In this document: in pieces, positions 7,602 to 41,878 of the stretch | Layout of the letters: each line of letters starts with the position of its first letter | Numbering within the stretch: position 1 is the stretch's first letter | Assembly (NCBI GenBank): GCA_043813215.1 | Contig: JBDRLH010000018.1 | Span: 1 to 41,878, forward strand | DNA length: 41,878 nucleotides | Direction of reading: 5' to 3' | Source of the DNA: Parcubacteria group bacterium | Lineage (GTDB): Bacteria > Patescibacteriota > Minisyncoccia > Minisyncoccales > JAQTPW01 | Program-made: the position numbers and the translations under genes | The notes under the pieces: model-generated | What the model was told of the DNA's origin: nothing | What the model saw: only the letters and a program-made list of their open reading frames with translations | Databases searched by the model: none

Positions 7602-8663
7602 ATGAATAACGAAAAAAGGAAAAAAGCTTTTATCACGGGAATCGGCGGACAAGACGCTTCTTATTTGGCGGAGTTGCTTTTACATAAAGGCTATGAAGTC
7701 CATGGTACAACCAGGTGGGACAGCGTTTTTATTAATAAAAGAATAGAGCATCTTTTCCAGGATCCCCATATTCATGGGGCGCGCCTTTTCCCTCATTACA
7801 GCGATATCACAGACACGGGAAACCTTGAAAGGCTGATTAACCAAATTCAGCCCGATGAGGTTTATCATCTGGCGGCCATGTCTCATGTCAGAGTGAGCTT
7901 TGATATGCCCGAATATACCGCCAACACCGATGCCCTGGGAACTTTGCGGGTTTTGGAAGCGATCAAGAATTCCGGGCTTCCCATAAAGTTCTATATGGCG
8001 GCGAGCTCAGAAATGTTTGGCAGTTCTCAACCCCCCCAGAATGAAAACACTCCCTTTTATCCAAGAAGTCCGTACGCTTGCGCCAAAGCGTTTTCATATT
8101 ACATTACCAGAATGTACAGGGAGGCCTACGGGATTTTTGCCGTCAACGGCATATTGTTTAATCACGAAAGTCCGCGCCGGGGAGAAACTTTTGTCACAAG
8201 GAAAATTACCAGGGCAGCGGCCAGAATAAAAGCCGGTCTTGATAAAAAAATTTATTTAGGCAATCTGGACGCCAAAAGAGATTGGGGCTTTGCCCCCGAA
8301 TACGTTGAGGCGATGTGGCTTATGCTTCAAAAGGATAAATCCGATGATTTCGTCATAGCCACCGGCGAAGCTCACTCCGTCAGAGAACTTTTGGAAGAAG
8401 CTTTTTTATATAGCGGCTTGGGCGACTGGCAGAAATACGTCGAAATTGATCCCAGGTATTTCAGGCCCGCCGAAGTGGAAATTTTGATCGGCAGTGCCCA
8501 AAAAGCCAAGGAAAAAATCGGCTGGGCGGCTAAGGTTAAATTTAAAGATTTGGTACGAATAATGGTCGATGCCGATTTTAGGGCGACAGGGTTGGAAGCG
8601 CCGGGAGAAGGAGATAAAATTTTAAAAGAAAAATTTCCCGATAAATGGTGGGGGATTGATTAA
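7602..8663 (+). CDS. gmd: GDP-mannose 4,6-dehydratase
   Basis: [29 protein letters not shown]-terminus, [28 protein letters not shown] (YxxxK), and [17 protein letters not shown] are all hallmark Gmd motifs. AGGAG RBS upstream. Length 353 aa. Confidence 0.9.
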
Positions 8664-9160: not shown

Positions 9161-10441
9161 ATGGAATATTATAAAAACATAAAAAAATGCCGGATTTGCG
9201 GCTCCAAAGACCTGATCGAAGTTATTCATATTGCCCCTCAATATCTGTCGCCAACCTTTGTAAGGACCAATGAGAAAAACGAACTATCAAAGATTAAAGT
9301 GCCTCTAACCTTGACCTTTTGTGACTGCAAAAGAAACCTCGACGGCTGCGGGCTTCTTCAATTAAAAGAAACCGTTAATCCGGATCTTTTATATAAGAAT
9401 TATTTTTACAGAACTGCCGTGAGTAGTACTATGTGCGAGGATTTACACGAGGTTGTAGAGGATGTTTTAAAGCATGTAAAATTGAATGACGGTGATTATG
9501 TTATTGATATCGGCGCCAATGACTGCACAATGCTGGGCTATTTTCCGTCTTCCTTGAATCGCATAGGGGTGGAACCCGCTAAAAATATTGATTTGAGCAG
9601 CCTCGACCCGTCAATAAAATTTATTAATGACTATTTTTCTAAAAAGACCGTTGAGAATGCTATCAGAAAGGGCTCTGTCAGAGCAATAACCTGTTGCGCA
9701 ATGTTTTATGATCTTGATGACCCAAACAGTTTTGTTTCTGATATTAAATCAATTCTGGCTCCGGACGGGATATGGTGCATTCAGCTCAGTTATTTGCCGC
9801 TTATGCTGAAAAATATGAATTTCTATGATATCTGTAATGAACATCTGGAATATTATTCACTTCATACATTAAAAAATCTGATGAAGCGTCACAGCCTTTC
9901 CATTTTTGACGCCTCGACTAATAATGTTAACGGCGGGAGTATCCGAGTATTTATCAGCCATACTGGAAACAATTATAAACCATCTGTCAATCTGGAGAGA
10001 CTTTATATGGAGGAAGAAAGAATGAACCTCTATGATGCAGCAACTTACAAAGATTTTTATAAAAAAATTTTAGATCTGAAGAATAAAGTCAATAATGTCA
10101 TAACCAAAGAGATAAACAAAGGAAACCTGGTGCTCGGTTTGGGAGCTTCGACCAAAGGGAACGTATTGTTGCAGCTATTCGGCATTACAAAAGAAATGCT
10201 TCCTTATATAAGCGAGAGAAACCCGGAAAAAGTTGGACTGAGAACCTTGGGAACCGATATAGGGCTTATTTCAGAAGAGGACGCCAGAAAACTAAACCCC
10301 AGTTATATGTTGGTGCTCCCCTGGTATTTTAAAAAAGAAATCGTAAAACGCGAAGTAGATTATTTGCGGCATGGCGGAAAACTACTGTTTCCGATGCCAT
10401 ATCCTCATATTGTTGACAAAAACGGAGAAACAAATTTATAA
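9161..10441 (+). CDS. NDP-hexose C-methyltransferase (TylCIII/TcaB9-like; Zn-ribbon + class I SAM MT + C-methyltransferase C-terminal domain), copy 1
   Basis: N-terminal CRICGS...C-x-C...C-G zinc-binding module, [18 protein letters not shown]-binding [19 protein letters not shown], and C-terminal [11 protein letters not shown]...[10 protein letters not shown] 426-aa paralogue lies at 37651-38931. Confidence 0.7.
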
Positions 10442-10454
10442 AAAACTTATAATT

Positions 10455-11414
10455 ATGGACTCTTTATCAAAAAATTATTTAACAAACAAAAAGATTTTAG
10501 TTACCGGCGGCGCAGGCTTTTTAGGAAATTTCATTATTAAAAAACTTTCAGAGCGCGGAGTGCCAAAAGAAAATATTTTCATACCTTTATTTGAAAATTA
10601 TGATTTAAGAAAAATGGAAAACTGCCTGAAAGTTGTTGAAAATCAAGATATTGTAATTCATTTGGCCGCTAAAGTCGGAGGCATTGAATATAGCAGCAAG
10701 AATCCCGGGCAGATGTTTTATGACACTGCCATCATAGGCATCCAATTAATGGAAGCCGCCAGGCAGGCAAATGTAAAAAAGTTCGTTGCCATTGGATCAG
10801 TTTGCGCCTATCCGAAATTTACTCCGGTACCCTTTAAAGAAGAAGATCTTTGGTCGGGCTACCCCGAGGAAACCAATGCCGCCTACGGGATAGCCAAAAG
10901 AGCGCTTCTAGCTCAAGCCCAAGCTTATCGAAACCAATACGGATTTAATGCCGTTTATCTTATATTGGTAAATCTATACGGTCCGGGTGATAATTTTGAC
11001 CCTCAATCTTCCCACGTTATTCCGGCTTTGATCAAAAAAGTTTATGAGGCCAAAAGCCAAGGAAAAAATTATATCAAAGTTTGGGGTTCAGGCAAGGCAA
11101 CTAGAGAATTCCTGTATGCCGAAGACGCCGCAGAGGGCATCTTGCTGGCTACTGAAAAATATAACAAATCAGAGCCGGTTAATTTGGGCACAGGCAAAGA
11201 AATTCCCATTAAAGAATTGGCTGAATTAATTTGCAGAATAATGGATTTTGGAGGCGAGATTCGTTGGGATGCCGCAAAACCAGACGGCCAGCCCAGACGT
11301 TGTTTGGATGTTTCTAAAGCTGAAAAAGAATTCGGCTTTAAAGCTGCCATGCCATTCAAAGAAGGTCTGAAAAAAATCATTGATTGTTATGTGGAAAACC
11401 ATGAAACTAAATAA
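10455..11414 (+). CDS. GDP-4-keto-6-deoxy-mannose epimerase/reductase family (GDP-L-fucose synthase Fcl / GDP-L-colitose synthase ColC-like), copy 1
   Basis: The ORF track begins at 10371, but ATG 10455 (MDSLSK...) follows the upstream stop. [11 protein letters not shown] Rossmann motif, GSVCAYP (Cys aligned with E. coli GMER C109, nt 10803-10805), YGIAK (YxxxK), NLYGPGDNF...SSHVIPALI (His aligned with H179), and [14 protein letters not shown]. Confidence 0.8.
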
Positions 11415-12221: not shown

Positions 12222-13535
12222 ATGGCAGACATTAAAGTTAAAATCCAAAAAGAAATAAATAATCTGGTCAAAAAATATTTTTCTTTACCCGGGGAAAATT
12301 TTATTTCAAAAAAAATAAAAATTCCTTTGAATATCCCTACTTTTGGCTGGCAGGAAGTCAATGAAGCCATAGACTCTTTGCTTTCAACCTACGTTACCAT
12401 GAATGAAAAGGTTTATAGGTTTGAAGATATGTTCGCAAAATATCTAGGAGCAAAGCATGCCGTAATGGTGAATTCAGGATCTAGTGCAAACCTCATAGCT
12501 TTGTCTGTTTTAAGCAACCCGACTGTTAAAAACCGGATAAAGCCGGGTGATGAAATAATAACTCCGGCCGTAACCTGGTCAACTACCGTTTTTCCGATTA
12601 TTAACGTCGGGGCAAAGCCCGTTTTAGTAGATGTAAATTTAAATGATTTTAGTATAAATCCCGAATTAATTGAAAAGGCAATTACTAAAAAAACAAAAGC
12701 CATAATGCCTGTTCACCTTCTGGGAAATCCAGCCGACATGACAACTATTATGAAAATTGCCAAAAAACACGATTTATTCGTCATAGAAGACGCTTGCGAA
12801 GCCCATGGAGCACAACATTATGGAAAAAAGGTTGGAACTTTTGGTGATATGAGCACTTTTTCGTTTTTCTTTTCCCATCATATCAGCACAATAGAAGGAG
12901 GCATGGTGGTGACTAATAATGATGAATATGCTGAATTGGCAAAAATGCTTAGGGCACACGGCTGGATTAGGGAATTAAAAGATAAAGGAAAAATCGCCAA
13001 AAAATATAAAAAAATACACAAAAACTATCTGTTCGTAAACATTGGCTACAATCTCAGGCCAACCGCCCTGCAGGGAGCTTTTGGGATTCATCAGATCGGA
13101 AAGCTGGAAAATATTATAAAAATTAGGAGAAAAAATGCTGATTTTTGGTCCGATAAACTTTCAGAATATTCAGATTATCTGATGTCGCCCCAAAAAAAAG
13201 AAAAAAAAGGCGAAAGAAGGGTTTGGTTTGGTTACCCAATTATTATTAAAGAAAGAGCGGGATTTAATCGAAAAGAGCTAACCGATTTTTTAGAAAGCAA
13301 AGGTATCGAAACTCGGCCGATTATGGCTGGTAACTTGGCTGAGCAACCAGCCATGAAACTATTTAATTATCGGATAGCTAGCAGACTGGATAATTCCGAA
13401 ATCATTATGAAGAAAGCTTTCTTTTTTGGCAATCACCAGGGCGTCAGGAAAATAGAAAAGGAATATTTGGTGAGATGTTTTGTTCAGTTTTTGAAGCAGA
13501 AAAGTAAATTACGAAATAGATATGAGAATAAATAG
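12222..13535 (+). CDS. PLP/PMP-dependent NDP-4-keto-6-deoxyhexose 3-dehydratase (ColD / E1 RfbH-DdhC type) of the DegT/DnrJ/EryC1 family
   Basis: NSGSSANLIAL, VIEDACEAHG and FSFFFSHHISTIEGGMVV. Aligned with PseC in this same window (LSFHPVKTITTGEGGMVL), the Schiff-base Lys is replaced by His (H219/H220, nt 12876-12881). That substitution is the signature of the 3-dehydratase subgroup. Length 437 aa with only two Cys. Confidence 0.65.
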   Translation: MADIKVKIQKEINNLVKKYFSLPGENFISKKIKIPLNIPTFGWQEVNEAIDSLLSTYVTMNEKVYRFEDMFAKYLGAKHAVMVNSGSSANLIALSVLSNPTVKNRIKPGDEIITPAVTWSTTVFPIINVGAKPVLVDVNLNDFSINPELIEKAITKKTKAIMPVHLLGNPADMTTIMKIAKKHDLFVIEDACEAHGAQHYGKKVGTFGDMSTFSFFFSHHISTIEGGMVVTNNDEYAELAKMLRAHGWIRELKDKGKIAKKYKKIHKNYLFVNIGYNLRPTALQGAFGIHQIGKLENIIKIRRKNADFWSDKLSEYSDYLMSPQKKEKKGERRVWFGYPIIIKERAGFNRKELTDFLESKGIETRPIMAGNLAEQPAMKLFNYRIASRLDNSEIIMKKAFFFGNHQGVRKIEKEYLVRCFVQFLKQKSKLRNRYENK

Positions 13536-35798: not shown

Positions 35799-36650
35799 AT
35801 GCTAACTATTGCCACTGTCCCCAAGCCGTTTAAAAATCCGCATATAAACATTATTCAGCGGAATGCCATTCAAAGCTGGTTGCTTCTTGAACCCCGGCCA
35901 CAAGTAATTTTATTCGGCAATGATGAGGGAATAGCCGAAGCGGCGAAAGAGTTTGGGGTTTTGCATGTTCCAGAAATTGAAAATGAGTTTGGCATTCCTC
36001 TTCTAAACCGCGTATACAGTTTGGCTCAAAAGGCATCATCCGGTCGGTTTGTCGCTCATATCAACACCGATATTATTTTAATGAGCGATTTTATGAAAGC
36101 TCTCGGCTCAATTAAGTTCGCTTCGTTTTTGATGACCGGCAGGAGATGGGATATAAACATTAAAGAACCAATTCAATTTAAGGAGACTGATTGGGAGAAA
36201 AGATTTCGTCAAAGGCTTATCTTAGAGGGGAAATTACACGGACTAGCTGGCGTGGAATATTTTGTTTTCCCTCGGAATCTGGATCTTAATCTGCCGCCTT
36301 TTGTTGCCGGTCGTCCTGGATATGACAACTGGCTTGTTTATAAAGCCAGATCTAGCAATATACCGGTCATTGATGCAAGCAAGGTTGTAATAGCTGCGCA
36401 TCAAAACCATGATTACAGTCATCGTGCGGGAGGAGAAAAGGGTATTTTGAAAAAAGCAGAAGGTAAACGAAATATTAAATTAGCCGGTGGTTTCGCTAAA
36501 ATGTTAACTCTCCGAGACGCTGACTGGGTTCTTACTCCACAAGGTGTAAAAAAACCAGAATTCCCGAGGAGAATCTTAAGCAAATTATCATTGTTTTATC
36601 CCTGGAGAATTTTATTATCGATTAAACGGAAAATACAAAATACCATCTGA
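35799..36650 (+). CDS. Hypothetical protein, possibly a GT-A-like nucleotide-sugar transferase
   Basis: 283-aa ORF tightly packed between GT genes. HINTDIILMSDF may be a DxD-like segment. No family was recognised. Confidence 0.3.
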   Translation: MLTIATVPKPFKNPHINIIQRNAIQSWLLLEPRPQVILFGNDEGIAEAAKEFGVLHVPEIENEFGIPLLNRVYSLAQKASSGRFVAHINTDIILMSDFMKALGSIKFASFLMTGRRWDINIKEPIQFKETDWEKRFRQRLILEGKLHGLAGVEYFVFPRNLDLNLPPFVAGRPGYDNWLVYKARSSNIPVIDASKVVIAAHQNHDYSHRAGGEKGILKKAEGKRNIKLAGGFAKMLTLRDADWVLTPQGVKKPEFPRRILSKLSLFYPWRILLSIKRKIQNTI

Positions 36651-36710
36651 TTTTTTATTTTTTTGTTTTGATATTTATGATATGATTAATTTTACGAAAA
36701 ATTTTTTGAA

Positions 36711-37646
36711 ATGATCAAGTTAAAAGATAAAAAAATTTTGCTTACGGGCGGGTCGGGCTTTATTGGAAAACACATTATTAATAATTTGGTTCAAAAACGC
36801 AACGTACCGCGAGAAAATATTTTTGTTCCCACCATCAAGGAATATGATTTGAGAGAATTGAAAAATTGCCAGAAAGTGGTTGGAAATCAAGACATTGTCA
36901 TCCATCTGGCTGCCGTAACCGGAAATATTGAACTGCACAGACTGCATCCCGGCAGAATTTTTTACGATAATATTATAATGGGTATCCAGCTTGTGGAGGC
37001 AGCCAGGATTGCCGGAATCGAGAAGTTTATAGGAATAGGCAGTGTCACTGCTTATCCTGAAAAAGCCACATCACCTTTTAAGGAAGAGCAGTTCTGGGAT
37101 GGGTATCCGGCAAAAATTCATGCCCCTTATGGTTTTGCCAAAAAAATGTTGTTGGTTCAGGGGCAGGCTTATAGAGAAGAATATGGTTTCAATGTCATTC
37201 ATTTATTATTGACCAGTGTTTATGGGCCGGGAACAAATCCCCAAAGCGGCTATGTAATTTCTTCAATAATTGAGAAAATTCAGAAGGCAAAAAAAGAGGG
37301 CAGGAATTTTATTGAGGTCTGGGGAACAGGAAAGCCAATAAGGGATTTTCTTTATGTTGAGGACGCGGCCGAGGGGATTATTTTGGCAACAGAAAAATAC
37401 GATAGACTCGAACCGATGAATATCGGATCAGGCATAGAGATTTCAACTAAAAATTTGATTAATTTGATTTGCGAATTAATGGATTTCAAAGGCGAAATTC
37501 GTTGGGATGCCACAAAACCTGATGGCCAGTTAAAAAGAATGATAGATGTTTCCAAGGCTAAAAATGAACTCGGCTTTACCGCTTCCACGTCTCTTGAGGT
37601 AGGATTAAAGAAAACCATTGAATGGCATTTGAAAAATTTAAAATAA
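36711..37646 (+). CDS. Fcl/GMER-family SDR, copy 2, lacking the epimerase Cys/His dyad (predicted reductase-only or altered chemistry)
   Basis: ILLTGGSGFIG, YGFAK (YxxxK), KPDGQLKRMIDVSK. GSVTAYP has Thr113 (nt 37047-37049) where copy 1 and E. coli GMER have Cys. GPGTNPQSGYVISSI has Tyr181 (nt 37251-37253) in place of His. Confidence 0.7.
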   Translation: MIKLKDKKILLTGGSGFIGKHIINNLVQKRNVPRENIFVPTIKEYDLRELKNCQKVVGNQDIVIHLAAVTGNIELHRLHPGRIFYDNIIMGIQLVEAARIAGIEKFIGIGSVTAYPEKATSPFKEEQFWDGYPAKIHAPYGFAKKMLLVQGQAYREEYGFNVIHLLLTSVYGPGTNPQSGYVISSIIEKIQKAKKEGRNFIEVWGTGKPIRDFLYVEDAAEGIILATEKYDRLEPMNIGSGIEISTKNLINLICELMDFKGEIRWDATKPDGQLKRMIDVSKAKNELGFTASTSLEVGLKKTIEWHLKNLK

Positions 37647-37650
37647 AATT

Positions 37651-38931
37651 ATGGCAACGAATATTTCCAAAACAATAAAAAAGTGTCGGGTCTGTGGTTC
37701 AAAAAATATAATTTCCCTTCTTTTTTTAGGACGTCTTCATATTTCAAATTTTATTGATAATAAAGAAGGCAATCATAAAATAAAAAAGATAGGCAGGCAA
37801 CCTCTTGAATTGGTAATGTGCAATCCTGATTTAAAGGGTTGCGGATTGATTCAATTAAAGCATACGTGCTCACCAGAACTACTTTATAGGAATTATTGGT
37901 ATCGTTCAGGCGTTAATCGGAGCATGACAGAGGCCCTTTCAGACATCGCTCAAAAAGCAGAAAAAATAGCAAAACCTAGAAGCGGTGATTATATTATTGA
38001 TATCGGTTCTAACGATGCGACTCTTTTCTGTTTCTATAAAACTAAAAATCTTAATCTTGTTGGCTTTGAACCGGCTAGAAATCTTATGTCTTACGCTAAA
38101 AAGAATTGTCCCGCAGGCAAATATATTAATGATTTCTTCAGTTTCAAAGCTTGGCAAAAAAAATTTTTTGGCAAAAAAGCCAAAATTATAACAGCTATCG
38201 CCATGTTTTATGATTTAAACAATCCCAATGAATTTGTTTCCGATATAGTTAAATGTTTGGATAAAAAAGGAGTGTTTATTATCCAGATGAGTTATTTGCC
38301 GTCAATGCTCCAGCAGAATGCCTTTGATAATATTTGTCACGAACATTTGGAATATTATTCGCTCACCTCCCTGAATAATCTGTTAAAAAGACACGGATTA
38401 GAAGTCTTTGATGCAGAATTAAACGATATCAACGGCGGAAGTTTCCGTATCTACATTCAGTACAAGGGATATAGGCCGATAAATAATCGTGTTCATAAAT
38501 TAGAGAAACTAGAAGAGAGATTAAAGCTCTCCAGTAAAAAAACCTATAAAATCTTTGCCTCAAGAATTTTCGCTCTAAGAAAAAAAATAAATAATTTCAT
38601 AAAAAACGAAACTCGGCTGGGCAAACGAGTTTATATTTATGGTGCTTCGACCAAGGGCAATACCCTTTTGCAATTCTTTAATTTAAACAAGGATTTAATA
38701 AAAGCAGCCGCTGACCGAAATCTCGACAAATGGGGTAAAAAAACAGTAGGCACTTTAATTCCTATTATTTCTGAAGAGCAGGCCCGAAAAGAGCGTCCGG
38801 ATTACTTTCTGATTCTTCCCTGGCATTTTTTGAAAGAATTTATTCAACGCGAAAAAGACTATCTTAGGTCAGGAGGAAAATTTATTGTTCCTCTGCCGCA
38901 ATTTAAAATTATCAGCAAGAAAGATTTATGA
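37651..38931 (+). CDS. NDP-hexose C-methyltransferase (TylCIII/TcaB9-like), copy 2
   Basis: CRVCGS...C...GCG zinc module, [54 protein letters not shown]. 426 aa, the same length as copy 1. Confidence 0.7.
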   Translation: MATNISKTIKKCRVCGSKNIISLLFLGRLHISNFIDNKEGNHKIKKIGRQPLELVMCNPDLKGCGLIQLKHTCSPELLYRNYWYRSGVNRSMTEALSDIAQKAEKIAKPRSGDYIIDIGSNDATLFCFYKTKNLNLVGFEPARNLMSYAKKNCPAGKYINDFFSFKAWQKKFFGKKAKIITAIAMFYDLNNPNEFVSDIVKCLDKKGVFIIQMSYLPSMLQQNAFDNICHEHLEYYSLTSLNNLLKRHGLEVFDAELNDINGGSFRIYIQYKGYRPINNRVHKLEKLEERLKLSSKKTYKIFASRIFALRKKINNFIKNETRLGKRVYIYGASTKGNTLLQFFNLNKDLIKAAADRNLDKWGKKTVGTLIPIISEEQARKERPDYFLILPWHFLKEFIQREKDYLRSGGKFIVPLPQFKIISKKDL

Positions 38932-40487
38932 AAGCTGTAATTATTATTCCAACCTATAATGAAAAAGAAAATATTGCCCAGATCGTTTCAGAAATTTTTG
39001 AATTATTGCCGGGAATTTCTATTTTGGTCGTAGACGACAATTCTCCCGATGGCACAGCTGATATTGTTAAAAATTTGCAAAAAGACTTTCTGAATTTATC
39101 ACTATTGTTAAGAAATAAAAAAGAGGGTTTGGGCAGGGCATATATAAATGCATTTGAAGAAATATTGAAAGACAAAAATGTCAAAAAAATTGTGATGATG
39201 GATGCTGATTTTTCTCATAATCCCAAATATTTGCCAGAAATATTAAAAACAGCTGATAATTTTGATGTTGTTATCGGCTCCCGATATATAAACGGAGGAA
39301 AAACGGAGGGTTGGGAACTGTGGCGGAGAATTTTAAGCAGGGGAGCCAATTTTTATTGTCAGCTCGTAACCCATCTTCCGATTTTCGATTATACCTCCGG
39401 TTTTAATGTGATTAATACCAATTTTTTAAGAAAAATTGATTTTTCGAAAATCAATATTTCAGGATACGCCTTTTTAATAGAGCTTAAGTATTTATTGTGG
39501 AAAGAAGGTGCTTCTTTAAAAGAAGTTCCGATAGTATTAAAAAATCGTTTCGGGGGAGAATCAAAGTTTTCGGGCCACATCATCAATGAGGGAATTTTAG
39601 CTCCTTGGAAGATGATTTTCAAAAAAATAAATAAAGAGTGTCCCTTATGTAATAAAAAAACTGCTGTTTTTTTTACCCAGAAAAAATCTTATACTTTTTA
39701 CAAATGCAAAGATTGTGGCTTGATTTTTATTTTCCCAATGCCCGAAAATCATTTAAAAATATATTCCCAGGATTATTTTACTGGTGCTAAAAAAGGTTTT
39801 GGATATGTGGACTACGAGGTTGATAAAAAAGCGATGTCCGCCACCCTCAATTCTTATTTAGATAAAATAGAAAAATTCATATCAAAAAATGGCAAGCTCC
39901 TGGATGTCGGCGCTGCCACCGGTTTTTTTATGGAGTTGGCAGAAAAAAGGGGATGGAAGGTTCAGGGATTAGAAATTTCCGAGTACGCCGCCAAAAAAGC
40001 CAGAGAAAAAGGTTTGGATGTGGCAACTGGAACCTTAGAAAACGCTAATTTTAAGGAAGATTATTTTAATTTGATTACTTTTTGGGATGTTGTTGAACAT
40101 TTGTCGGGCCCCAAATCGACATTGTCATTAGCTTACAAAATTTTAGAAAAAGATGGGATAATAGCCATCAATACTCCGGACTCGGGAAGTTTTATTGCCA
40201 AGTTTCTTAACAAAGGCTGGCACCTATTGGTTCCGCCAGAACATTTATTTTTATTTAATTCAAAAAATCTCAGTAGCGTATTAAAAGAAATTGGTTTTGA
40301 AATATTATTTGTCGGCAAAATTGGGAAAAAATTTACCTTGCAATATGCAATTCAAATATTAGCTAATAAACAAAAATTCTTTGTTTTCGATTGGCTGGCA
40401 AATTTTTTCAGAAATAACTTTTTAGGTAAATTGATTATTCCGTTTAGTCTGGGAGATAATTTTTTCGTTTTAGGATATAAAAAATAA
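38928..40487 (+). CDS. Fusion protein: Dpm1/GtrB-like polyprenol-phosphate glycosyltransferase (GT2) + Zn-ribbon + class I SAM methyltransferase
   Basis: aa 1-230: VIIIPTYNEKENI, ILVVDDNSPDGT, MMDADFSHNPKYLP. From aa 238 (nt ~39636): CPLC...CKDCG, LLDVGAATGFFM, FNLITFWDVVEHL. ATGA overlap with the upstream gene. Confidence 0.7.
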   Translation: MKAVIIIPTYNEKENIAQIVSEIFELLPGISILVVDDNSPDGTADIVKNLQKDFLNLSLLLRNKKEGLGRAYINAFEEILKDKNVKKIVMMDADFSHNPKYLPEILKTADNFDVVIGSRYINGGKTEGWELWRRILSRGANFYCQLVTHLPIFDYTSGFNVINTNFLRKIDFSKINISGYAFLIELKYLLWKEGASLKEVPIVLKNRFGGESKFSGHIINEGILAPWKMIFKKINKECPLCNKKTAVFFTQKKSYTFYKCKDCGLIFIFPMPENHLKIYSQDYFTGAKKGFGYVDYEVDKKAMSATLNSYLDKIEKFISKNGKLLDVGAATGFFMELAEKRGWKVQGLEISEYAAKKAREKGLDVATGTLENANFKEDYFNLITFWDVVEHLSGPKSTLSLAYKILEKDGIIAINTPDSGSFIAKFLNKGWHLLVPPEHLFLFNSKNLSSVLKEIGFEILFVGKIGKKFTLQYAIQILANKQKFFVFDWLANFFRNNFLGKLIIPFSLGDNFFVLGYKK

Positions 40488-40494
40488 CCCTTCC

Positions 40495-41766
40495 ATGATA
40501 AATATTTCGAAAATTTTTATAAAAATAGATAATTTATTTAAGAACAAAAAGATTTTACTCCTGATTTGTCTTCTTCTTCTATCTTTTCAATTATGCTACA
40601 GTTTTCTTTATCCTACTCACGGACCTAGGGGCAAGGCCTGGCTGTCTCTCCCTGACTTGATTTCCCATGAAAAATCTCCGCTTGATGCTTCCGAAGGGCT
40701 GCTAATTACTAAAGCCTACGGACTTTTAAGTAATTATTATATCAATGCCGACGGGGGGCAATATCTGCTTTTAGCTAATAATTTCCCCAATTATTATATC
40801 GGAAACAATCCCGTTATTTTAGACAGGCCGTTTTATTCTTTTTTAATTGCCGTTATCGCTTTTTTGCCACGCTTATTCTTTGATTCTTATGCAACGCTTT
40901 TTGCTTCGGCAATTTTTCTTAATTTTATTCTGGGTTTCTTTTCGGTTGTATTATTTTACTATCTTTGTGAAAAATTAATCAGTTCCCGAGTGGCTCTCCT
41001 GTCGTCCTTACTGTTAATTTTCTCTCCATATTTTCATTTTTGGCTAGTCCAACCCGTGCCGAACATATTTACCATTTTTATAATTGTAGCCACTCTTGTT
41101 CTCTTGGAAAAATATATTAAAAATCCATCAAGTCTTAAGCTTATTGTTTTCTCTTTGATTATCGGCGTGTTTATGTTGGGGAAAATGATTTTTGCCATGC
41201 CGATTTTTATTCTTTTCTCTGCTTTTTATTTCAAGAGATACAAGGAGGGAATAATATTTTTAATAATTCACTTGATTCCTCTGATTTTTTGGTATTTATT
41301 TGTTGTAACAAAGCTCGGAATACCTTATTACATCAATGAAGCAGATTACGGTGTGGGCGTATGGTTGCTTGATGCTTTTCATTCTCCGTGGTATAAAACT
41401 TTTGAAATCTTCCTTAGTGTTTTGCCCCAGTTTGTCTATGTAGTAATTTATGCGTTTTTATTGATACCGGTGATTTTTAGCATCTTCGGTTTCAAAAAAC
41501 TGATTTTTAAAATCGGGCACTTTTTTGCTTTGAATTTTATTCTTTCTTTCTTGATATTATTATTTATAATGAATCTTTATTCCCCGCGTTATGGATTTTT
41601 TCTTTATCCCATAGTTTATCCTTCTGCCGTTTTGGGGATAGACCAAATAGCGGAATTTTTTAAAAAATATAAAAATTGGTATTCCGCAGTTTTTTATTTA
41701 GTGGTATTTATATTTTTAATAGTCATTTCTAATGCCGATATTTATAAAATTTTTCCCTACGGATAA
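40495..41766 (+). CDS. Polytopic integral membrane protein, candidate GT-C-type glycosyltransferase or glycan polymerase/ligase
   Basis: 423 aa, hydrophobic throughout with roughly 10-12 helix-length segments. The first loop contains acidic PLDASEG. It immediately follows the polyprenol-phosphate-sugar synthase fusion. No family was recognised with confidence. Confidence 0.35.
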   Translation: MINISKIFIKIDNLFKNKKILLLICLLLLSFQLCYSFLYPTHGPRGKAWLSLPDLISHEKSPLDASEGLLITKAYGLLSNYYINADGGQYLLLANNFPNYYIGNNPVILDRPFYSFLIAVIAFLPRLFFDSYATLFASAIFLNFILGFFSVVLFYYLCEKLISSRVALLSSLLLIFSPYFHFWLVQPVPNIFTIFIIVATLVLLEKYIKNPSSLKLIVFSLIIGVFMLGKMIFAMPIFILFSAFYFKRYKEGIIFLIIHLIPLIFWYLFVVTKLGIPYYINEADYGVGVWLLDAFHSPWYKTFEIFLSVLPQFVYVVIYAFLLIPVIFSIFGFKKLIFKIGHFFALNFILSFLILLFIMNLYSPRYGFFLYPIVYPSAVLGIDQIAEFFKKYKNWYSAVFYLVVFIFLIVISNADIYKIFPYG

Positions 41767-41784: not shown

Positions 41785-41878
41785 ATGATTAAGATAACTT
41801 ATATAAAAAAAATAATTATAGTAATTGGGATAGTAATGATTGTTGTTGTCGGTGGCTGGCTGGTGTTTTCTGACAAGA
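41785..41878 (+). CDS. 5' end of a further gene encoding an N-terminally membrane-anchored protein (truncated by the window edge)
   Basis: ATG 41785, then MIKITYIKKIIIVIGIVMIVVVGGWLVFSDK. The frame is still open at the end of the window. Confidence 0.35.
   Translation, partial: MIKITYIKKIIIVIGIVMIVVVGGWLVFSDK

Follow-up and report, generated by a model that had tools for sequence, protein, structure and literature searches.

A Thr/Tyr variant of GDP-L-fucose synthase in a conserved Patescibacteria cassette, predicted to act as a reductase in the synthesis of a methyl-branched sugar

Here we describe a gene of the GDP-L-fucose synthase (GFS) family, Fcl2, and the cassette to which it belongs in a 41,878-nucleotide stretch of DNA from a Parcubacteria group bacterium (contig JBDRLH010000018.1 of assembly GCA_043813215.1, positions 1 to 41,878; hereafter the window). 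Fcl2 (36711-37646, + strand) encodes an extended short-chain dehydrogenase/reductase (SDR) of 311 residues in which the Cys/His dyad used by GFS for epimerisation is replaced by Thr and Tyr. It is a member of a conserved, monophyletic group of proteins (the T/Y clade) whose genes stand directly before a gene for a sugar C-methyltransferase (C-MT). We favour, with moderate confidence, the reading that Fcl2 is a GDP-4-keto-6-deoxy-(C-methyl)hexose 4-reductase devoid of epimerase activity, feeding lipid-linked glycosylation. The cassette as a whole probably makes a methyl-branched 6-deoxy sugar, which would be attached through a lipid carrier to a cell surface of the Patescibacteria type.

Replacement of the epimerase dyad in Fcl2 and its clade

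The window carries two pairs of Fcl-like and C-MT genes on the + strand: C-MT1 (9161-10441) followed by Fcl1 (10455-11414; 319 residues, a ColC/GMER-like epimerase-reductase), and Fcl2 followed by C-MT2 (37651-38931), which starts 4 nucleotides past Fcl2. An earlier description made from the letters of the DNA (hereafter the sequence-only reading) had given these four genes, with the second pair in inverted order and both C-MTs as 426-residue paralogues of about half identity. The list of open reading frames and their translations confirm this arrangement and both lengths, and alignment gives 193/422 identical residues for the two C-MTs (46%, E = 8e-129) and 177/308 for the two Fcl proteins (57%, E = 3e-136). 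Both Fcl copies match PF01370 (E = 6e-46 for Fcl2) and find their best NCBIfam match in GDP-L-fucose synthase (NF047922; EC 1.1.1.271), with scores of 204.4 bits for Fcl2 and 281.2 bits for Fcl1 that lie below the equivalog cut-off of 500 bits.

Alignments with the E. coli enzyme (GMER) and human GFS place Fcl2 Thr113 (codon ACT, 37047-37049) on the general base of epimerisation (GMER Cys109, human Cys116), and Tyr181 (TAT, 37251-37253) on the general acid (GMER His179, human His186), with a two-residue deletion just upstream of Tyr181 (GTN--PQSGY). In the same alignments Fcl1 retains the dyad as Cys117 (TGC, 10803-10805) and His187 (CAC, 11013-11015). The Ser/Tyr/Lys reductase triad of Fcl2 is intact (Ser111, Tyr140 and Lys144, equivalent to GMER S107, Y136 and K140), and the residue changes, the deletion and the retained triad called by the sequence-only reading all stand after these alignments and a check of the codons. 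The N-terminal GxxGxxG motif is present (GGSGFIG, residues 13-19), as are the contacts to GDP (V182, K189, W204, R211 and R276, at the positions of human V187, K194, W208, R215 and K282), for which roles have been described (PMC12362431, PMC7949155). The AF2 model of Fcl2 (pLDDT 93.6, pTM 0.92) predicts a fold that superposes on E. coli GMER (1E6U) and human GFS (TSTA3, 4BL5) with template-modelling (TM) scores of 0.89-0.93, and about equally well on the C. jejuni GDP-heptose C4 reductases 8EWU, 7CXT, 7M13, 7ANC and 7ANH (TM 0.84-0.93).

Fcl2 thus has the predicted fold, the triad and the GDP contacts of GFS, but it lacks two of the defining features of that enzyme, the dyad and the equivalog-level score, and it carries His in place of two Asn residues. 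His76 (CAC, 36936-36938) aligns with human Asn79 and E. coli Asn72, and His137 (CAT, 37119-37121), three positions before the catalytic Tyr140, with human Asn140 and E. coli Asn133. Both human residues move to line the sugar pocket upon GDP binding, as seen in a kinetic and structural study published in 2025 (PMC12362431).

Of the 120 database clusters nearest to Fcl2, 34 are Fcl2-like and 86 are canonical, so that with Fcl2 itself the T/Y group comprises 35 of 121 sequences. The Cys position is occupied by Thr in 33/35 members and by Ala in 2/35, and the His position by Tyr in 34/35 and Phe in 1/35, as against Cys and His in 86/86 canonical proteins; the two-residue deletion is found in every T/Y member but one (P0031). 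Neither group shows any variation at the Tyr and Lys of the triad, whose first residue is Ser in 35/35 T/Y proteins and Thr or Ser in canonical ones, and the NAD(P) motif and GDP contacts are likewise invariant across the 35 members. Position 76 is His in 34/35 of the clade versus Asn in 85/86 canonical enzymes, position 137 is His in 32/35 (Asn in the other three) versus Asn in 85/86, and Ser169 of the inner clade replaces human Asn172/E. coli Asn165. Read at Fcl2 positions 76, 113, 137, 169 and 181, the signature is N-C-N-N-H in canonical enzymes versus H-T-H-S/N-Y in the T/Y clade.

In a maximum-likelihood tree the T/Y group is monophyletic (SH-aLRT 89), with an inner 26-member clade that includes Fcl2 (99), and it is nested within the Cys/His enzymes as sister to a small set of other dyad-less sequences. 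Since loss of Cys/His defines a conserved monophyletic clade, it is not the lesion of a single gene, and with the triad and GDP contacts retained throughout, Fcl2 is the orthologue of a distinct subfamily rather than a decaying copy of Fcl1. The clade is known from metagenome contigs and a few metagenome-assembled genome (MAG) names (Patescibacteria, Nealsonbacteria and one 'Flavobacterium sp.' MAG). Scanning GTDB species representatives with Fcl2 returned no T/Y-clade member: the best match was 63% identical, and the scan yielded gmd-fcl pairs of the canonical kind together with three His-Thr-His relatives in tandem.

Possible catalytic consequences of the altered pocket

The case for a loss of epimerisation draws on mutants of human GFS, in which the C116A and H186A substitutions abolish activity, C116S lowers the rate about 10^3-fold, with a C3-epimerised, prematurely reduced product released for the most part, and H186K is nearly wild type (PMC12362431). 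Given the activity of H186K, the change of His to Tyr is by itself weak evidence, and the change of Cys to Thr carries the argument. A biochemical precedent is offered by C. jejuni DdahC (Thr110/His180) and MlghC (Tyr/Arg), GFS-like C4 reductases that lack any epimerase activity, and a T110C substitution in DdahC brought no gain of such activity (PMC7949155). These enzymes, extended SDRs acting on GDP-4-keto sugars, share with Fcl2 a GFS-like fold and a non-Cys/His dyad, DdahC having its Thr at the position of Fcl2 Thr113, but they are only 24-27% identical to Fcl2, measure about 345-355 residues rather than 311, and combine a wider heptose pocket with a separate cupin C3/C5 epimerase, whereas Fcl2 has neither an insertion of heptose size nor a cupin partner. 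Fcl2 further differs from DdahC in the Tyr at the His position, the two new pocket His residues and the coupling to a C-methyltransferase and lipid-carrier glycosylation. By analogy, Fcl2 would be functionally similar to these reductase-only GFS descendants while standing outside their lineage. The earlier prediction that Fcl2 reduces a 4-keto sugar without epimerising it is therefore upheld in part: the loss of Cys/His, the intact triad and the DdahC/MlghC precedent speak for it, while the gain of His76 and His137 speaks against it and the His-to-Tyr change says little. The sequence does not discriminate between the rhamnose- and talose-type products that the prediction named.

The two gained histidines are at the centre of an alternative that we consider unlikely but to which we allow a real minority chance, namely that Fcl2 is still an epimerase-reductase with His137 or His76 taking the role of base and Tyr181 that of acid, inverting C5 of a C3-methylated 4-keto sugar to give an L-series branched sugar. 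A His/Tyr acid-base pair is used by RmlC-type epimerases, to which this set may be likened. His76 and His137 are clade-specific and occupy the sugar-pocket Asn79/Asn140 positions, the near-wild-type H186K enzyme indicates that the acid position tolerates other protic residues, and the cassette encodes no separate cupin epimerase. The sequence-only reading had also considered another Cys/His pair at the active site. In a search for one, Cys53, Cys254, His21 and His65 proved to be conserved in canonical enzymes too, and the clade-specific residues were His76, His137 and His164, of which the first two, at the pocket Asn sites, keep a re-invented acid/base set under consideration. Catalytic pairs are normally invariant, as Cys/His is in all 86 canonical enzymes, yet His137 gives way to Asn in 3/35, Thr113 to Ala in 2/35 and Tyr181 to Phe in 1/35 members. 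DdahC and MlghC, moreover, act without epimerase activity, and DdahC T110C is not an epimerase.

Further evidence on residue 181 comes from more distant relatives that keep His-Thr-His and have Phe, Leu, Gly or an alignment gap at position 181 (the cluster representatives P0135 and P0210, as well as tandem genes at loci L019, L025 and L026). Because the residue drifts among Tyr, Phe, Leu and Gly in this way, a catalytic role for it appears unlikely, which counts against Tyr181 as a replacement acid.

A related possibility, rather unlikely in our view, is that His76, Thr113 and His137 form a redesigned pocket, in which the two gained histidines, together with Tyr181 where it occurs, make up a new acid/base system. 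The clade would then represent a hitherto unknown kind of mono-epimerase/reductase that inverts only C5 of a 3-C-methyl-4-keto sugar before reducing it. If true, Patescibacteria would in this way obtain branched 6-deoxyhexoses of the L-series for their lipid-linked surface glycosylation.

The cassette, its C-methyltransferase and the predicted pathway

We examined the surroundings of T/Y orthologues on five contigs (L001 to L005) and on a second contig that carries the L005 protein (L006). The order Fcl(T/Y), C-MT, glycosyltransferase family 2 (GT2) protein, GT-C-like membrane protein is preserved in 6/6 long contigs, with gaps of 4 nucleotides or overlaps between genes, and identities to the window proteins across loci are 61-78% for Fcl, 65-80% for C-MT, 51-83% for GT2 and 47-72% for the membrane protein. 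The sequence-only reading had treated the Fcl and C-MT genes as the unit; the pairing holds, but the GT2 and GT-C genes downstream belong to the unit as well. A 123-residue SMR/EamA-like membrane protein is encoded at 4/6 loci (L001, L002, L004 and L005). At L004 a GDP-mannose 4,6-dehydratase (GMD) gene, whose product is 76% identical to the GMD of the window, lies directly upstream of Fcl(T/Y), and the locus has no second Fcl and no cupin epimerase; the succession of GMD, Fcl(T/Y), C-MT, GT2, GT-C and small membrane protein there looks like a self-contained unit. The T/Y gene of L005/L006 comes after a NUDIX gene and a canonical Fcl that shares 70% identity with Fcl1. Neither the open reading frames of the window nor the L001-L005 cassettes yielded a gene of the cupin family.

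C-MT2 is a NDP-4-keto-sugar C-methyltransferase of the TylC3/TcaB9/MtmC type. Both window C-MTs combine PF08421, PF13489 and PF08484, all three above cut-offs in C-MT2, which also has the four Cys of a Zn-ribbon (CRVCGS...MCNPDLKGCG) and aligns end to end with MtmC (E = 1e-55) and TcaB9 (E = 5e-35). In alignment the motif CHEHLEYY of C-MT2 (CNEHLEYY in C-MT1) corresponds to YDEHFFLF in TcaB9 and YHEHLSYI in MtmC, and contains the Glu-His that in TcaB9 is Glu224/His225, which we take, from the work of the Holden laboratory, to be the active-site pair. The three domains, the Zn-ribbon Cys and the Glu-His are thus common to C-MT2 and to TcaB9 (3NDI), KijD1 (5T64) and MtmC (4RV9), but these enzymes use dTDP-sugars in antibiotic pathways, whereas C-MT2 would act on a GDP-sugar within a surface-glycan cassette. 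In the C-MT tree, C-MT2 falls in a 21-member clade (support 99) that contains all T/Y-linked C-MTs; its two subclades are those of the Fcl tree, which indicates that Fcl(T/Y) and C-MT have co-diverged. In addition, 11 T/Y Fcl clusters and 11 close relatives of C-MT2 could be matched as pairs by identical longest-contig size.

This association bears on a further alternative, quite improbable in our estimate, in which Fcl2 reduces unmethylated GDP-4-keto-6-deoxy-D-mannose to GDP-D-rhamnose or GDP-6-deoxy-D-talose while C-MT2 draws on a shared pool to serve another branch. Simple 4-reduction, the first option of the sequence-only reading, is what loss of the dyad would by itself predict, the variant stands in tandem with a canonical Fcl at L005/L006, L019, L025 and L026, and the His-Thr-His relative at L025 is without a nearby C-MT. 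Set against this, the T/Y gene has a C-MT behind it in 6/6 long contexts, either 4 nucleotides away or overlapping, the subclades are shared between the trees of Fcl and C-MT, and the remodelling of five pocket positions suggests a substrate other than plain 4-keto-6-deoxymannose. Known synthases of GDP-D-rhamnose and GDP-6-deoxy-D-talose are, to our knowledge, GMD-like and not Fcl-like, which also counts against it. Action on a C-methylated intermediate, which the sequence-only reading had offered as one of two options, is therefore favoured by the constant position of C-MT behind Fcl(T/Y).

The two trees also inform on the history of the window's pairs. C-MT1 has a long branch that falls outside the C-MT2 radiation as a whole, Fcl2 shares 73-82% identity with its orthologues from other metagenomes and 57% with Fcl1, and the nearest relatives of Fcl1 are canonical Cys/His enzymes (74% identity to P0033 and 70% to the L005 Fcl). 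With C-MT1 outside the C-MT2 radiation and Fcl1 closest to canonical enzymes, the two pairs represent old, separately assembled modules; judged by their sequences they are old paralogues and not a duplicated pair, and the earlier view that one pair recurs as a copy of the other has to be abandoned. A dead or decaying Fcl2, left by recent duplication of the C-MT/Fcl pair within the cluster, would agree with the occurrence of both families twice in the cluster and the equal length of both C-MTs, but is most improbable: the identities and both trees rule out a recent duplication of the pair, and the triad, NAD(P) motif and GDP contacts invariant in 35 members, the intact reading frame and the confident structural model rule out a pseudogene or dead enzyme.

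The first pair lies in a module that also contains a NUDIX gene and genes for a radical SAM enzyme and an E1/RfbH-like 3-dehydratase (12222-13535). This module appears separate and older; it would use the common GDP-4-keto pool for another sugar, and it retains the dyad needed for C5 inversion. The combination of GMD, TylC3-type C-MT and Fcl-like protein has a counterpart in Coxiella burnetii, where an in-silico proposal derives GDP-virenose, a 6-deoxy-3-C-methylhexose, from GDP-mannose through Gmd (CBU_0689), a TylCIII-like protein (CBU_0691) and Fcl (CBU_0688) (PMC3539893). As CBU_0688 keeps Cys109/His179, this case resembles the first pair rather than the second. The Coxiella route feeds O-antigen and has no GT2/GT-C lipid-carrier cassette. 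Fcl1 has Ser80 (10692-10694) where 85/86 canonical relatives and the E. coli and human enzymes carry the sugar-pocket Asn (human Asn79); the substrate of Fcl1 may be altered too, in keeping with the association of Fcl1 with a C-MT and an E1-like 3-dehydratase.

Downstream of C-MT2, the GT2 gene (38928-40487, + strand) encodes a 519-residue fusion (PF00535 and PF13489) whose N-terminal part resembles polyprenyl-phosphate sugar synthases. Residues 1-223 have Pyrococcus furiosus Dol-P-Man synthase (5MLZ, E = 2.9e-31) as the best solved relative, followed by ArnC (E = 3e-8), and the NCBIfam matches to AglJ, PpgS and ArnC are all below cut-offs. Dol-P-Man synthase uses a GDP-sugar. The C-terminal half consists of a Zn-ribbon and a class I methyltransferase; the latter matches the methyltransferase domain of TcaB9/KijD1 (E about 1e-6), and a stretch resembling a Zn-ribbon comes before it. 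The fusion is found in the window, L003 and L005, and the orthologous GT2 proteins of L001, L002 and L004 measure 465-472 residues, with a methyltransferase domain that is barely recognisable. Next to it, a polytopic membrane protein of 423 residues (40495-41766, + strand), with orthologues at six loci, is a candidate GT-C enzyme predicted to use a lipid-linked sugar outside the membrane; it matches PF13231 (PMT_2) weakly (29.8 bits versus a cut-off of 26.1) and has no NCBIfam match. A GT2 followed by a PMT_2-type protein fits the layout of three-component glycosylation systems, in which a GT2 of the Dpm1/DPMS, GtrB or ArnC type works with a small flippase and a GT-C of the ArnT/PMT type. Unlike in the known systems, the donor would here be a branched 6-deoxyhexose, and the GT2 is fused to a methyltransferase.

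Under the favoured reading of Fcl2 as a reductase, the pathway would begin with the only GMD of the window (7602-8663, + strand; TIGR01472 at 489 bits versus a cut-off of 415, PF16363), the presumed source of GDP-4-keto-6-deoxy-D-mannose for both modules. C-MT2 would form an enolate by way of the 4-keto group and, by homology with MtmC, TcaB9 and KijD1, add a methyl group at C3, with C5 as a possible alternative. Fcl2, as a descendant of GFS that partners C-MT2 and no longer epimerises C3 or C5, would then carry out an NADPH-dependent reduction at C4 without inverting C5, yielding a D-series GDP-6-deoxy-C-methylhexose. The GT2 protein would transfer this sugar to polyprenyl phosphate, and its fused methyltransferase may O-methylate it; the lipid-linked sugar would be flipped across the membrane, for which the 123-residue SMR/EamA-like protein of the relatives is a candidate, and the GT-C protein would pass it to an acceptor at the cell surface.

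The analysis shows the homology, the conservation of residues, the predicted fold, the synteny and the co-divergence on which this scheme is built, while all of its chemistry is inferred: the substrate, the order of steps, the loss of epimerisation, the position of methylation, the stereochemistry of the product and the acceptor. Several observations weigh against the scheme. The gained His76 and His137 could form a replacement acid/base set with Tyr181, whose protic side chain could act as acid given that H186K GFS is almost fully active, and Thr113 might keep trace activity given that C116S GFS weakly epimerises C3. The GDP specificity of C-MT2 is deduced from its Fcl, GMD and Dpm1-like neighbours; relatives of C-MT2 at about 60% identity pair with SDRs other than Fcl, and the His-Thr-His relative at L025 has no C-MT within 7 kb. 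For MtmC, the nearest solved C-MT, a 4-ketoreductase activity has also been reported (PMC3539893), which could mean that the roles of the two partners are split differently. Finally, the GT-C assignment hangs on the weak PMT_2 match (E = 8e-7), and no flippase gene of the GtrA or ArnE/F type was found within the window.

Genomic surroundings, wider relatives and implications

The cassette closes a single + strand glycan cluster of about 35 kb, which runs from 6348 to the end of the window and has a G+C content of 30-40% versus 48% in the first 4 kb. Fcl2 is preceded by an AT-rich intergenic gap of 60 nucleotides (36651-36710), which the sequence-only reading had singled out as the largest in its neighbourhood and which is indeed the largest in the cluster downstream of 6348. 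A promoter consensus scan found no + strand site within the gap, and the region is not enriched (8 sites versus 5.7 +/- 2.5 expected), so that the scan decides neither for nor against a promoter there. On the other side of the gap, a conserved 283-residue protein (35799-36650, + strand) accompanies the cassette; it has no Pfam or NCBIfam match, and homologues with 46-76% identity are found at L001, L002, L003 and L005/L006. The GT-C gene ends 112 nucleotides before the end of the window, where an open reading frame cut by the window end (41790-41878; MIKITYIKKIIIVIGIVMIVVVGGW...) resembles a DUF4430 gene located after GT-C in L003, which indicates that the synteny with L003 extends past the cassette.

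In a wider set of 152 aligned sequences, made up of the 150 nearest 50%-identity cluster representatives and the two window copies, the N-C-N-N-H signature is found in 74, and the Cys/His dyad is kept in 108 and absent from 44, so that replacement of the dyad is common. The variants among these 44 include S/H, L/H, N/R, Y/K and C/K. Tandem Fcl genes in species representatives of Saccharibacteria/Patescibacteria (L019, 6053-7921; L025, 7001-8862; L026, 1048-2918) combine one N-C-N-N-H gene with a His-Thr-His gene that has Leu, Phe or a gap at position 181; at L026 a C-MT comes directly after the tandem, and at L025 none lies within 7 kb. In MAGs of Liptonbacteria and Saccharibacteria, further Fcl-like genes with a Cys/Lys dyad, the pair used by GDP-mannose 3,5-epimerase, stand near canonical gmd-fcl genes (L013, 7977-8891; L025, 11922-12845). 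Three Fcl-like proteins of 676-700 residues (P0126, P0271 and P0207) have an insertion of about 360-390 residues right before the catalytic Cys (...GT(I/V)-[insert]-HN|CAYPK), which, from its sequence, resembles an intein whose +1 extein residue would be the epimerase Cys.

The variant is not surprising in principle, but the cassette is clean and testable, and the annotation rule is useful. Databases label T/Y clade proteins 'GDP-L-fucose synthase', a name that is almost certainly wrong, and with dyad replacement common and largely unannotated, many 'GDP-fucose synthase' annotations probably belong to something else. With the five-position signature, canonical fucose synthases can be told apart from such variants in a simple way.

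Together, GMD, C-MT, reductase, Dol-P-Man-synthase-like GT2 and GT-C make up a compact, testable route to a GDP-activated C-methyl-branched 6-deoxyhexose. C-methylation of a GDP-sugar has so far been proposed only in silico, for Coxiella virenose; a search of open-access texts returned that work, and neither an experimental GDP-sugar C-methyltransferase nor an account of the Fcl(T/Y) cassette. The enzymes could serve to make rare branched sugars, and the cassette points to lipid-carrier-mediated surface glycosylation in Patescibacteria, a group whose envelopes are poorly known.

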